DNA of 63,610 bases, filler included, from Candidatus Woesearchaeota archaeon (GTDB lineage: Archaea > Nanobdellota > Nanobdellia > Woesearchaeales > J072), in the NCBI GenBank assembly GCA_003695265.1. It is 8 parts of 8 records of this genome, joined end to end, with 100 filler letters (N's around TTAATTAATTAA, not from the genome) between each part and the next. Parts side by side here need not be neighbours in the genome. Positions count along the whole stretch, not along the records: positions 12,288 to 36,480 come from RFII01000016.1; 7 more parts are not named here. One strand, given 5' to 3'. The notes beneath the pieces are model-generated. The model was not told where the DNA came from. It made no database searches and worked only from the letters and a program-made list of their open reading frames with translations. The position numbers were made by a program, and so were the translations under genes. Below, in pieces: positions 7,732 through 50,754 of this stretch (positions are counted from its first letter, which is position 1; each line of letters begins with the position of its first letter).

Positions 7732-8425
7732 ATAAAGATTTAAAATAAAGAACCACGTGGCGCCTGCTAATCTTTGATTCCCCTCTTTTTCGCAATCCAA
7801 ATTGGTAATTAACATACCCTATTTTCTTTGACCTGTTAATCTGTTTGAGAAGATCAAACAACACCTTATATCCTCTAGGCTCAAACTTGTGCTCTGCTTT
7901 TGAGATAACCTCTTTAAACAAGTCTGATCTTACACCAAAAAAACCAGACACGACGTCTTTTACGTAAATTCCTTTTAACAATAGCCGAAGTTGTCCTAAG
8001 ATTATGGCTGTTTTAGACATCAGTTTCCTATGCCATGGCCACTTAGCAAGAATTTTTTCCCTGCACCCTATAACAATGTTATAGCCATTTCTTAATTTCT
8101 CAATAATCTCTTTAATTTTTTCTGGGGGATGCTGCATGTCAGCGTCTGTAACAACAATAAATTCTGTTTTCACTGTTTTTGCGGCGTCTATTACTCTGAT
8201 AGTAAGGCCTTTTACTTTTTGTTTTGAGCGGTCAAGAACAATAAAGTTTGGATTCCCATAATTCCTTACAATGTCCTGCGTCTTATCCTTTGAGCCGTCA
8301 TCACTAACTATAATATTTATTCCTGGGTATAATTTGTCAAGAATTCTCAGCATTTCACCTATGTTTTTTTCCTCGTTCAAGGTTGGTATTATTACTGTAG
8401 TATCTCCAAAGTCCATAATTAACAA
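7724..8425 (-). CDS. GT2 polyprenol-phosphate glycosyltransferase (Dpm1-like)
   Basis: IIPTLNE, DDGSKDKT, DADMQHPPE, D.VSGFF, R..GESK. Confidence 0.9.
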   Translation of the reverse strand: MLIMDFGDTTVIIPTLNEEKNIGEMLRILDKLYPGINIIVSDDGSKDKTQDIVRNYGNPNFIVLDRSKQKVKGLTIRVIDAAKTVKTEFIVVTDADMQHPPEKIKEIIEKLRNGYNIVIGCREKILAKWPWHRKLMSKTAIILGQLRLLLKGIYVKDVVSGFFGVRSDLFKEVISKAEHKFEPRGYKVLFDLLKQINRSKKIGYVNYQFGLRKRGESKISRRHVVLYFKSLFK

Positions 8426-13516: not shown

Positions 13517-13550
13517 CAAAAACCCTGAGATGGGGGTGGAGGTGCTTAAC

Positions 13551-14159
13551 ATGAAAACACTAAAAAGAATAAAAAGCATAATAAGATCAGGAGTGATAAG
13601 TGCCCTGGTTGCGACCCTCTTAACAGCAACAACCGCGCATGCTTGGCAGAACATAACGCCAACATATAACATTAATCACAGGACAACACAAGTTAGGTTG
13701 CAGCACGGCACAGACAACTCTTATGCCTTTATCGACTTCAACGGCGATGAGCATGGAGACTTAGAAGGATTTTACGGAGAAGCATTAAGAACTGTGCCGT
13801 TAGCGTATGGGATCAGCGTCGGTCCTGAGTATAACGGCGGAACAGGCGTTGATGACATTGTCAGGGCGCAGATAACAGCATCCGGCCAAATAGGACCTGT
13901 CTTTGTGCAGGGAAAATACTCACCAGTCTCAACCGGCGATGCTGGACAGCAGCTCGGCCTCGTGGCTAATGCACAATTTGGAAGAGTTGGCCTTGGAACA
14001 TGGCTTGACATTGACTTCAATAATGGCCACACAGCAAAGTCAGGAGAGCTAGAAGCAACTCTCAAACTAACTGATAACGTCAAAGCTTATGGGAAAATGG
14101 AAAAGTTTGACTGGCAGAAAAGCCCAAGCTACTCAATAGGCTTCCAGGCAGACTTTTAA
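13551..14159 (+). CDS. Secreted protein resembling an outer-membrane beta-barrel (DUF5020/Tsx-like)
   Basis: GGAGGTG RBS; Sec signal ending AHA; amphipathic strands YAFIDF, GFYGE, EYNGG; C-terminal YSIGFQADF. Confidence 0.6.
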   Translation: MKTLKRIKSIIRSGVISALVATLLTATTAHAWQNITPTYNINHRTTQVRLQHGTDNSYAFIDFNGDEHGDLEGFYGEALRTVPLAYGISVGPEYNGGTGVDDIVRAQITASGQIGPVFVQGKYSPVSTGDAGQQLGLVANAQFGRVGLGTWLDIDFNNGHTAKSGELEATLKLTDNVKAYGKMEKFDWQKSPSYSIGFQADF

Positions 14160-14217
14160 TTCTTTTGTTTCTTTATTTATGGCAACCTTTAAATAACAAT
14201 AATGCGTGCATCAATTA

Positions 14218-15153
14218 ATGACAACCATTGTTGTTGCATTAGGCGGAAACGCATTGCTCAAAAAAGGGCAGAAATTCACGATTAAGGACAGCTTCAAGAA
14301 TATTTCTCCTGCTCTTGATTCTATAATCCCATTAATCAAGAAAGGGTTTAATGTTGTGATTACGCACGGCAACGGCCCACAAGTAGGAAACCAGCTGATA
14401 AGAGTAGAGCATTCTATAAACAAGGCATATTACCTTCCATTGTATGTGTGCGGAGCCCAAACCCAAGGCGAGATAGGCTACATGATTCAACAGTGTTTAC
14501 TCAACAAGCTGAAAGAAAACAACATAAAAAAGAACGCTGTCTGCGTTCTAACGCAAGTCCTAGTTGACAAAAACGACCTTTCATTTAAAAAGCCTACAAA
14601 GCCCATAGGCCCCTTTTACACAAAAGAGCAGCTTAAGGAGCTTGGCAAAGAAGACTGGAACTTAATCGAAGATGCTGGAAGAGGCTACAGGAGGGTTGTT
14701 GCTTCACCAAAGCCAAAAGAAATTATAGAGAAGGACATAATAAAAAAGCTTGTTGAGTCAGGAACAATAGTAATTGCTGTTGGCGGCGGAGGAATACCAG
14801 TCTATCTGAATGAGGAAAACGAATTGAGGGGTATAAGCGCAGTAATTGACAAGGATTTGGCCTCTGCATGCCTTGCTAACGAGCTAAAAGCGGAAATGCT
14901 CCTTATATTGACTGACGTTGAATGCGTTTTCTTGAATTACGGCAAAGAAAACGAGGAAAAAATATCAAGAATCAATGTTGCACAAGCAGAATTATACCTC
15001 AATCAAGGCCACTTCGCAGAGGGCAGCATGAAGCCAAAAGTAGAGGCAGCAATAAGTTTCCTGAAGAAAGGAGGCGAAAAAGCAATAATAACAAACCTTG
15101 AATCAGTAGAAGAAGCGCTTCAGGGAGAAAAAGGAACTATAATAACAAAATGA
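14218..15153 (+). CDS. arcC: Carbamate kinase
   Basis: VALGGNAL, THGNGPQVG, PTKPIGPFY, GGGGIPV, VIDKD, GSMKPK. Confidence 0.96.
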   Translation: MTTIVVALGGNALLKKGQKFTIKDSFKNISPALDSIIPLIKKGFNVVITHGNGPQVGNQLIRVEHSINKAYYLPLYVCGAQTQGEIGYMIQQCLLNKLKENNIKKNAVCVLTQVLVDKNDLSFKKPTKPIGPFYTKEQLKELGKEDWNLIEDAGRGYRRVVASPKPKEIIEKDIIKKLVESGTIVIAVGGGGIPVYLNEENELRGISAVIDKDLASACLANELKAEMLLILTDVECVFLNYGKENEEKISRINVAQAELYLNQGHFAEGSMKPKVEAAISFLKKGGEKAIITNLESVEEALQGEKGTIITK

Positions 15154-15289
15154 GCTAGAATATCTTTCTCTTTTGCAGAAAAAGTTAGGCTAAAAAGGGC
15201 TTTTGGGAGTAATCGATGATTCTTATAATTTCCAAGTTATGTTTTCAAATCCAAATATTTTTATACTTTCCAAACATTCTCTTATTCAG

Positions 15290-15680
15290 TGCAAAATTAC
15301 GCAAATGGGTCCTTTCAGGAGCTTTCCGGAAGGAATAAGCGTTGACTGGGAGACACTCTTGCGTAATACAGCCCGTCACGAGAGTACTCAATGGAGCTTA
15401 CGGCAAAGCCAAGCAATGAGCTTGGGAGTTAGTGTTGCGGGCAACAAACACTTTAATGGTCACAAAATTCAATTTAGAATAAGCTTGAAGTTTATATTTA
15501 CCATTTAACGTTTTAAATCGCGTAAAAAAGGAAAATAAGCCTTATGAAGCGATTTTAGGCTTATATTTCCTTAATTTCAAGCTTGTTCTAGATATACACC
15601 ACGAGAAGAGGTTAGCATCATGTTCAATTATTCACCAAAACTTTTGGTTTTTAGTAGGGCTTCTTCTACGTGGTAAAACA
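15290..15680 (+). ncRNA. Putative large structured RNA or 5' leader upstream of dnaG
   Basis: Long stems 15475-15492/15573-15590, 15528-15542/15557-15572, 15598-15611/15660-15674; mismatches are G-U on the + strand; TATA-like TTTTATAC near 15260; ends approximate. Confidence 0.55.
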
Positions 15681-15695
15681 GGAGGAATGATAAGC

Positions 15696-16970
15696 ATGGG
15701 AAAAATAAGCCCAGTTTCAGCAAAATATATTATTAATGCGTCAATCACAATTGATGGAGTAGTTGACAGGCCTGATGTTATTGGCGCTATATTTGGCCAG
15801 ACAGAAGGCTTGTTAGGTTCTGACCTGGAGCTGAGAGAGCTCCAGAGGAGTGGCAGAATAGGAAGAATAGAGGTTAATGTCGACACTAAAGGTGGAAAAA
15901 CAACAGGAGACATTATAATACCTTCCAGCCTGGACAAGGCTGAAACAGCCATTGTGGGTGCTGCCCTTGAGATAATCCAAAGAATTGGGCCTTGCAACGC
16001 AAAAATCAAAGTAAATAACATTGAAGATGTGAGGATTTCAAAGAGAAACTTTGTTATTGACAGGGCAAAAGAGCTTCTCAAGGAAATGATGGACACTGTA
16101 ATGCCTGATTCCCAGGAATTAAGCGACGAAGTGGCTTATTCAGTGAGAATGATGGAAATACAGGTTTATGGAAAGGACAGGCTGCCCGCAGGCCCTGCAA
16201 TTGACGAGTCTGACGAGATAATAATTGTTGAGGGCAGAGCAGACGTCCTCAACCTGTTGAAGCATGGGATAAAGAACGCCATAGCCATTAATGGCACTTC
16301 AATACCACCAACGATCGCTGAATTAACTCAGAGGAAGATAGTGACAGCCTTTGTTGATGGTGACAGGGGTGGTAAGCTGATTATAAAAGAGCTTCTCAAC
16401 GTTGCTGACATTGATTATGTTGCTTTTGCTCCTGATGGAAAAGAAGTTGAGGAAATAACAAAGAAAGAAATCCATAAAGCACTGAGAAGCAGGATTGCTG
16501 CAGAGCAGGCAAAGCTTGAAGTAACAACAGAAACATCAAAAACTGGCACAAAACAAGCGTCGAGGACTCCTGAAAGATCAAGTTGGAATAACAATAGGCA
16601 ACCACAAAGACCGTCAAGGCAACCAAGAGCAGCAACGCAACAGCACTCTTCTTACACTGCAAAAAAGCTGATGTTAGATAATGACCAGAAAAAGAAAGTG
16701 AGGGAAATGCTCGAAGACCTTATTGGGACAAGAGGCGCTTACATCCTTGATGAGAAGCTTTCTATTCTTGGAAAAGTTCCGACCTCCGAGTTAGAAACTG
16801 CTGTGAAAAGTGTTAGCTCAGGGGTTTACGCAATTGTGTTTAACGGCACTATTGACAAGAACCTTGTGAGAACAGCAGAAAAACTAAACGTCAAATTTTT
16901 GGTGGCAATGGACTCAAAGGTCAAGAACGAAGAAACGAAGATTAACATAATGACTGAAGAAGATCTTTAA
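15696..16970 (+). CDS. dnaG: Archaeal DnaG (TOPRIM; exosome-associated, primase-like)
   Basis: [34 protein letters not shown] at 15680-15685. Confidence 0.96.
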
Positions 16971-27354: not shown

Positions 27355-27631
27355 CGGCAGGCTAGGCCGGGTGGTCAGCCCTCACCTGTTACCGCAAACG
27401 GGCTTTACGGCGGGGCTGAAGCTTTGGAAGAGGCTCATTGCTTTGCCGTTGGTCTCAGCTTGGACGATGAGGTTCTGTCCCATTGGGCTTGTTTTTTCGG
27501 GAAATGAGTCAGGTCAGGAATGAAGCAGCTCTAACTGATTAAACAGGCGCTTTTGGGGTAGCGGAGCTAAGGACAGGCTGGGGTTAAGCCAATGGCTCGG
27601 CTTTGAGTCCATTCCTGGGCGCGCCTGCCGC
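27355..27631 (+). ncRNA. ffs: Signal recognition particle RNA (7S)
   Basis: 5' GCUAGGCCGG Alu start; helix 8 GAG-UCAGG-UCA-GGAA-UGA-AGCAG-CUC; terminal GGCAGG/CCUGCC pairing. Confidence 0.93.
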
Positions 27632-50603: not shown

Positions 50604-50639
50604 ATCATGAATTTTAGTCTGGCAATATAAGAAAATAAG

Positions 50640-50754
50640 GCGGACAGCTTTCCTGGTTTCCCGTTCGAAGAACAGTACACCCAGGAACGGAAGCCTGCTT
50701 GACTTTGGTGTTCGAAATGAGTACCAGTAGGACCAGGCCCCTATGGCCGTCCAA
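50640..50754 (-). rRNA. rrf: 5S rRNA (stand-alone)
   Basis: GGACGGCCAUAG...CAUUUCGAACACCAAAGUCAAGC...GUACUG...GGGAAA...GCUGUCC; helix I pairs. Confidence 0.92.

Follow-up and report, generated by a model that had tools for sequence, protein, structure and literature searches.

Bacterial pnp, rne and ribosomal-protein operons carry autoregulatory structured 5′ mRNA leaders, and Nova-type (UCAY)3 sites place tandem UCAY words in a stem-closed loop. H/ACA guides leave UN unpaired, 14–16 nt from the box. Among described guides, the HgcG/Pab40/Pf7/Afu4 RNA (Rfam RF00064) has three motifs. Passages of the paper on this RNA state that motif 3 guides helix 69, and that motif 2 of Afu4, first assigned to A. 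fulgidus 2601, was reassigned by Muller et al. to the 2586 equivalent (PMC2377435). HP2 of Haloferax volcanii was proposed, in passages of a second paper, to guide both 1915 and 1917 via alternative structures (PMC2584109). Nanoarchaeum equitans, which belongs to the same phylum as the archaeon studied here, expresses a 159-nt H/ACA sRNA, and the paper on this sRNA makes no mention of dnaG (PMC3491384). As for the protein, parts of one report state that the N-terminal domain of archaeal DnaG binds RNA with a preference for poly(rA) and that DnaG helps the exosome tail rRNA (PMC4227792), while passages of another state that the RRM of DbpA/YxiN binds hairpin 92 of 23S rRNA, the A-loop (PMC8536315).

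Here we describe a locus in which an H/ACA guide, a structured leader and dnaG follow one another on the same strand. The window, that is, the whole 63,610-nt stretch of DNA analysed, comes from the genome of a Woesearchaeota archaeon (G000; 1.06 Mb, 94.6% complete). The features at the locus are as follows, with the TATA-like box, the K-turns and ACA boxes and the Shine-Dalgarno (SD) element read from the sequence itself.

14206-15153, + strand: carbamate kinase (arcC), the neighbour 5′ of the structured region
15258-15265, + strand: archaeal TATA-like box
15296-15370, + strand: H/ACA hairpin 1, with lower stem 15296-15303/15360-15367, pocket 15304-15310 plus 15353-15359, and an upper stem
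15319-20 and 15344-45, + strand: GA and GA of the hairpin 1 K-turn, with the ACA box at 15368-15370
15371-15446, + strand: H/ACA hairpin 2, with lower stem 15371-15379/15434-15442 and pocket 15380-15386 plus 15430-15433
15393-15399 and 15411-15419, + strand: K-turn of hairpin 2, with the ACA box at 15444-15446
15472-15593, + strand: leader unit 1, a long stem with core AGAAUAAG (15476-15483) paired to CUUGUUCU (15582-15589), closing a multibranch loop
15598-15674, + strand: leader unit 2, with core AGAAGAGG (15604-15611) paired to CUUCUUCU (15660-15667) and WUCAY words at 15617 and 15631
15680-15685, + strand: SD element of dnaG, AGGAGG
15696-16970, + strand: archaeal DnaG, a 424-aa TOPRIM protein that binds RNA and associates with the exosome, NCBIfam NF003108

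The structured region consists of two elements, an H/ACA guide (15296-15446) and a separate leader (15472-15674), and is not one RNA. The first-pass annotation had offered either a single undescribed ncRNA or a cis-regulatory leader tied to dnaG. The former gives way, since the 5′ half is an H/ACA guide of known kind and the two halves part in evolution; the latter is borne out for the 3′ half by a conserved helix, a polar motif cluster, a class-wide position and co-segregation with dnaG. The long stems it described are present: of the 18 bp in stem 15475-15492/15573-15590, exactly two depart from Watson-Crick pairing, both being G-U on the + strand, and the nested stem (15528-15542/15557-15572) and the third stem (15598-15611/15660-15674) form with one bulge apiece, the third stopping at 15674, 5 nt short of the AGGAGG at 15680-15685. 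The + strand of 15290-15686 folds with z = -6.8 (0/100 shuffles as stable) and the - strand with z = -4.1. The smaller pairings suggested for the 5′ part did not fare as well. The possible pseudoknot TGACTGGG/CCCGTCA is paired in 52% of cells over 24 homologues, with 0 compensatory changes and 500/500 shuffles doing as well, and is rejected. Neither the CCAAGC/GCTTGG nor the ACTCT/AGAGT hairpin is a conserved pairing: AAGC pairs with GCTT to close a K-turn stem, and ACTCT and AGAGT belong to the two guide pockets. The annotation also saw no known RNA signature, wrongly, as the Rfam family HgcG/Pab40 (H/ACA) matches 15230-15451 below its gathering score (E = 6e-4). Absence from Rfam thus holds over the structured region at gathering level and breaks down beneath it, where HgcG/Pab40 scores 21.7 bits, the gathering threshold being 77. 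Across the whole window, Rfam at gathering level returned SRP RNA and 5S rRNA only (an archaeal SRP RNA match at 27355-27630, + strand, and a stand-alone 5S rRNA match at 50639-50754, - strand), and a tRNA search found none.

The dnaG product scores 502.7 bits against NF003108 (cut-off 300) and also matches the Toprim domain; its nearest relatives carry the labels Woesearchaeota or Nanoarchaeota. The start codon is most likely the ATG at 15696, 10 nt past the SD. The methionine encoded there is invariant in 55/55 DnaG homologues, which disfavours a start at 15687. Transcription is predicted from the position of the TATA-like box to begin near 15289. A TATA-like word lies 96-114 nt 5′ of hairpin 2 in 25/26 loci with hairpin 1, and such words cluster 24-34 nt 5′ of hairpin 2 among the 66 loci without hairpin 1. 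Because a TATA-like word also falls within 51/92 of the AU-rich guide-to-dnaG spacers, a second promoter inside the spacer is possible. The gene 5′ of the locus is carbamate kinase in the host; many relatives apparently have a divergent gene in its place. Upstream of it, at 13530-14159 (+ strand), a 209-aa ORF without a Pfam match has a signal-like N-terminus, alternating strands and a terminal Phe; it resembles an outer-membrane beta-barrel, which is odd for an archaeon.

Both hairpins of the guide contain a K-turn (GA/GA, a 3-nt bulge and a canonical stem) that is conserved in homologues. Over 24 sequences, 25/40 pairs of the two-hairpin guide have changed on both sides (0/500 shuffles), and slid-alignment controls are 28-45% paired. 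Such changes occur at 8/8 pairs of the hairpin 1 lower stem and at 10/21 pairs of hairpin 2 (76 distinct sequences). The 3′ box reads ACA in 64/84 hairpin-2 and 16/25 hairpin-1 homologues and NCA in the remainder, departing from ANA in 20/84 and 9/25 copies, respectively. Almost certainly, then, 15296-15446 is a two-hairpin archaeal H/ACA guide, whose hairpins would bind L7Ae and Cbf5 and direct pseudouridine formation in 23S rRNA; that it modifies rRNA would follow by analogy with its family. The guide adds a new member to a known class and is related, below threshold, to HgcG/Pab40/Afu4. It matches motifs 2 and 3 of that RNA in order, going by the passages that describe them (PMC2377435), has two motifs in place of three and lies directly past the TATA box. 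With the N. equitans sRNA, as described in parts of that paper, it shares two K-turn hairpins joined by ACA alone, but the N. equitans RNA lies between the genes for tyrosyl-tRNA synthetase and a hypothetical protein and has its own promoter and a T-stretch terminator (PMC3491384). Hairpin 1 is recognisable in only 25/84 loci with a full hairpin 2. At four loci (L028, L013, L029 and L170), the first hairpin 5′ of hairpin 2 has different pocket sequences, which suggests retargeted guides.

We scanned the host 23S stretch on contig C46, which has 713 U, for pairing with the two pockets. The hairpin 1 pocket has a sole match, the A-loop U at G000:C46:2723 (14 pairs, 15 nt from ACA). The hairpin 2 pocket has a single strong match, and its best is the helix 69 U at G000:C46:1915 (10 Watson-Crick pairs, 14 nt from ACA). 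In E. coli numbering we take these to be U2555 and U1917, respectively, as placed by eye with passages of PMC2584109 as anchors. The predicted target of hairpin 1 is accordingly named the 23S A-loop U2555, possibly U2554; the latter is a possible alternative because the pocket base adjoining the A-loop target is A in 21/25 and C in 4/25 homologues. The predicted target of hairpin 2 is the helix 69 U1917 and perhaps, in an alternative register, U1915 as well: both registers of the upper stem are conserved, and 7/79 copies have an extra U that perfects the pairing for U1915. This conservation of both registers resembles what passages on Haloferax volcanii HP2/HP1 describe (PMC2584109).

The guide and its target also change together. 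Both genomes with the target ACCUA, G046 and G059, which belong to different families, have the guide UAGGU (2/2), and genomes with the target ACCC or ACUC have the guide GGGU in 10 cases, in a comparison that takes in genomes where hairpin 1 can be recognised and the A-loop was read, leaves out the ambiguous G024 and carries no tree correction. The UAGGU/ACCUA pairing is a guide-target compensatory change. The 2586 equivalent was rejected as a hairpin 1 target, its base being C in 17/17 23S reads (30 loci examined). Since 2586 is C in these reads, the first assignment of Afu4 motif 2, to 2601, fits the host lineage. A. fulgidus 2601 corresponds to E. coli 2555 if there is no indel, by offsets taken from passages of PMC2377435 and PMC2584109. 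The Woesearchaeales reads have C at position 2586, and G104 and G069 have U there. The bases closing the A-loop are G and A (G-UGUUC-A) in 26/26 reads and also in G104 and G069 (23S loci L001, L126-L154, L223 and L224). The A-loop closing pair is usually C-G.

Of the guide machinery, Nop10 and L7Ae were found in G000. Cbf5 was found neither in this 94.6% complete assembly nor in G001, and since it scores above the cut-off in 55/61 genomes, an assembly gap is likely in the host. In two genomes (G027:C10:3549-6014 and G050:C12:5486-7870) the Cbf5 match is split by ~1.5 kb in open frames of 812-844 aa, probably by an intein or intron near residue 170. The three genomes of family f94 (G081, G126 and G147) give no guide match and have a shortened, sub-cut-off Cbf5 match, a possible loss of guided pseudouridylation.

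To place the guide relative to dnaG, we reduced 110 dnaG loci to 97 by dropping 11 duplicates and 2 truncated loci. Hairpin 2 lies upstream of dnaG on the same strand in 92/97 of them, and in 85/86 of those whose upstream DNA spans 700 nt or more. A covariance model of hairpin 2 (R1) matches 141/151 genomes of the phylum, and in 139 of the 141 matched Nanoarchaeota genomes, including 26 from other orders, the guide lies at most 700 nt upstream of dnaG. The exosome core is encoded in 149/151 genomes. We infer that guide, leader and dnaG are co-transcribed, because a U5+ tract within 30 nt past the guide ACA occurs in only 4/92 loci, while the unlinked guides of G104 and G115 have a U-run 3′ of the guide. 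The relocated guide of G115 (L210; G115:C50, near 7895-8070) has a ~35-nt internal tandem duplication and a first hairpin with different pockets.

The leader comprises one or two units. In each, (A/U)UCA(C/U) words recur along a loop strand that follows the helix AGRRCAAG/CUUGUUCU. Counts were made over 92 Woesearchaeales spacers between the guide ACA and the SD, with 88 upstream stretches as controls. The CUUGUUCU arm is exact in 65/92 spacers (0.4 expected) and present in 85/92 when one mismatch is allowed, and in 79 of these 85 it pairs with an upstream AGRRCAAG. At two core positions the 5′ arm replaces A-U by G-U (in 21 and 18 of 79), and because of this variation the element is read as an RNA helix of the + strand in which the 3′ strand keeps its sequence. 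The helix reaches 94.5% pairing across 48 units that were picked on length and on predicted pairing; both-side cells number 24, where shuffles give 8.4, and 4/10 pairs show both-side changes (39/500 shuffles as high). The covarying homologues that the first-pass annotation had asked for 5′ of dnaG therefore exist, with strong covariation in the guide and modest covariation in the leader. Spacers are 91-568 nt long, and 80 of them shorter than 300 nt fold with a median z of -3.7. Two paired arms, that is, two units, are found in 44/92, the second arm being pyrimidine-only and near the start.

The words themselves are in excess: UCAU occurs 401 times against 180 expected and UCAC 171 times against 65 expected over the 92 spacers, with no excess in the 88 controls. 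Within leaders the enrichment is 5.4-6.1-fold for (A/U)UCAY, 1.4-fold for (G/C)UCAY and 1.3-fold for UCAR. They are also polar. Around 124 arms, words occupy a zone 0-35 nt 3′ of the 5′ arm and peak 5-25 nt past it at 0.40-0.54 per 5 nt, compared with 0-0.05 before the 5′ arm and 0-0.02 over the last 25 nt leading up to the 3′ arm; the spacing between words varies from 4 to 9 nt. In predicted folds, UCAY words are barely more often unpaired (0.46-0.50 vs 0.41). Runs of A5+ number 167 against 123 expected. The unit-2 arm out-pairs the unit-1 arm against the SD in 36/44 spacers, and the SD is predicted to be paired in only 38% of 88. The host is a weak example of the leader, with 3 UCAY words against a median of 6, although both helices are present; its unit 1 (fold z = -6.5) has no WUCAY word inside, and its unit 2 folds with z = -2.7. 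We are highly confident that the leader is a real element selected at the RNA level.

The leader belongs to dnaG and not to the guide. In other orders, UCAY words occur in 26/26 spacers (76 vs 24) and UUGUUCU in 18/26. Judged by eye, the leader is retained before dnaG in 8/12 genomes without an adjacent guide. In G115 the guide lies on a different contig and is not followed by a leader, and both leader units are still before dnaG. Leader-like units occur in seven genomes (G088, G094, G081, G126, G147, G130 and G048) that give no guide match, in searches that include the 82% complete G048 and two runs without a positive control. DnaG and the exosome are present with little or no leader in G104, G133, G069 and G182, and in G165 the guide stands 15 nt from dnaG with no leader. 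In a distant lineage, whose DnaG is mostly 45-50% identical, neither guide nor arm occurs in any of 19 loci (0/19) and WUCAY words number 9 against 12; dnaG there follows a coding gene, and the leader is absent in 19/19 loci. Thus, as expected of an autoregulatory leader, a conserved structure is found 5′ of one gene and co-segregates with dnaG. An exact arm of the CUUGUUCU type occurs on 14/638 host intergenic strands, and the 8-mer 123 times genome-wide; a regulon search of G000 found no second full leader unit, in a search that can miss units and whose ORF mask hid host unit 2. An Rfam search of 7 leader loci at E 0.5 gave no match. The open-access literature yielded no paper on a dnaG leader or on guide-dnaG linkage, and a preprint covering 208 complete genomes from the phylum contains no ACA, ncRNA or exosome in its main text. 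The leader is apparently undescribed, and it fits best as a new family within an already known type of element. It is like the pnp, rne and ribosomal-protein leaders in being a gene-specific structured 5′ leader of a gene for an RNA-binding or RNA-decay protein; homology is not expected, and feedback at dnaG is putative. From the Nova sites it differs in being archaeal, in limiting the 5′ base to A/U, in its sequence-conserved helix and in having a candidate binder only.

A model can be proposed for the locus. One TATA promoter would give a single transcript of the H/ACA guide, the structured leader and the dnaG ORF. L7Ae would bind the guide hairpins at the K-turn and Cbf5 at the ACA box, and the pockets would pair with 23S rRNA to place pseudouridine in helix 69 and the A-loop. 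The conserved leader helix would display the loop strand of tandem WUCAY words, in 1-2 units before the SD. DnaG, alone or on the exosome cap, would bind these units and its own expression would be lowered, either by mRNA decay or by favouring the last 3′ arm for pairing with the SD. Cutting and 3′ trimming within the leader would also free the mature guide. Taken jointly, a guide, a selected leader and a protein-bound regulatory role of that leader are a reasonably probable reading, and the leader is probably autoregulatory. Binding of the leader by DnaG, with self-lowering and release of the guide by processing, is a more tentative proposal that may well prove wrong.

Being gene-specific, with a helix that is fixed and short words in tandem, the leader looks like a multivalent protein site. 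The simplest candidate for its binder is DnaG, on the grounds that its N-terminal domain binds RNA, that it takes part in rRNA tailing by the exosome, and that the leaders have A-runs and an arm able to pair with the SD. Against it stand the reported preference for poly(A), not UCAY, and the SD being paired in only 38%; passages of a Sulfolobus exosome iCLIP study mention no such motif (PMC7667871). A model of the DnaG N-terminal domain has an RRM/ferredoxin-like fold (pLDDT 90.4). Its top structural matches are ferredoxin/RRM-like, with neither KH nor DbpA among them, which tells against neither, and the best is RNase P Pop5 (Z 9.1, rmsd 3.6, 99 aligned). A first model, with pLDDT about 50, was poor for a KH test, the GXXG clasp is absent from the N-terminal consensus, and the ESM Atlas returned only scores <0.8.

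It is tempting to speculate further that the N-terminal domain of DnaG is a DbpA-like RRM for hairpin 92, that leader WUCAY words and the UGUUC arm mimic the A-loop so that free DnaG represses its own mRNA in the manner of ribosomal proteins, and that the guide in the same transcript modifies the A-loop and helix 69. The A-loop reads UGUUCAC in 26/26 reads and contains the leader's word, and GUUCAY is 9.8-fold enriched in leaders, yet AUCAY is as common as UUCAY. DnaG shares with the DbpA/YxiN RRM, described in parts of PMC8536315, the modelled RRM/ferredoxin-like fold, but the profile match is weak: in the helix-1 region of the DbpA RRM it covers 28 columns (P = 0.0036, probability 9%), scoring 20.7 against a maximum of 17.7 in 40 shuffles, and against one sequence the probability is 0.8%. 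The domain has no match to PF03880. An A-loop signature that tracks the leader was sought and failed in both leaderless genomes with 23S (2 of 5); G104, for instance, has a UGUUCAC A-loop and no leader. We regard A-loop mimicry as rather improbable.

If DnaG is not the binder, another protein may read the leader, likeliest a KH factor such as Rrp4, the two-KH protein arCOG04150/Dim2 or the KH-bearing PINA-like ATPase, all three of which the host encodes. The classical Nova KH site consists of UCAY words in tandem within a stem-closed loop, aDim2p reportedly binds the 16S 3′ end, and that end holds AUCAC; YCAY and UCAY are absent from the text of a KH review that covers Nova and aDim2p structures. 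Through such a factor, the expression of dnaG would be coupled to the assembly of ribosomes or the supply of the exosome. A shared regulator might, however, be predicted to leave a second leader unit elsewhere, and none was found in the host genome, and single-gene leaders are commonly autoregulatory; we consider a KH factor unlikely, though worth keeping in view. Improbable, and already weakened, is the idea that the hairpins merely signal processing that parts the guide RNA from the dnaG message. It accounts for the 88/92 loci without a U-tract past the ACA and for the UCAY word in the first 35 nt past the ACA in 68/92, but both leader units stayed with dnaG in G115 when the guide was relocated, and the seven genomes named above keep the leader with no guide match.

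Very little can be given to the remaining explanations. That the whole 400 nt form one stable multi-domain ncRNA in an RNP with DnaG is very unlikely: the order is fixed, no terminator separates the halves and the overall fold is strong, but the halves occur apart, the spacer varies in length and in number of units, the pseudoknot is not conserved and the last leader unit abuts the SD. A metabolite-sensing riboswitch, for which the conserved 5′ element and a possible anti-SD arm could speak, is less likely again, as conservation is confined to an 8-bp helix and to short tandem words whose spacing varies, a conserved junction and tertiary core are both lacking, and Rfam matches none of the seven leader loci. 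AU-rich long inverted repeats are also what a MITE or other mobile hairpin would show; with a single copy in G000 and a constant position across orders in which the sequence has diverged, copy number and deep orthology refute it at this locus, and for the 3′ stems we give it next to no weight.

Returning to a probably autoregulatory dnaG leader behind an H/ACA guide, the guide is ordinary, yet it escapes Rfam throughout a phylum. The leader outweighs it in importance, being kept in streamlined symbiont genomes across orders, and to our knowledge few archaeal cis-regulatory RNA families have been described. We likewise know of no natural sequence-specific RNA site for archaeal DnaG, and the leader is a concrete candidate for one, with a defined helix and word. 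Should the A-loop mimicry hold, DnaG would act in rRNA quality control as a sequence-specific adaptor of the exosome. The fixed order of guide, leader and dnaG ties rRNA modification to an exosome cofactor that helps tail and degrade rRNA.
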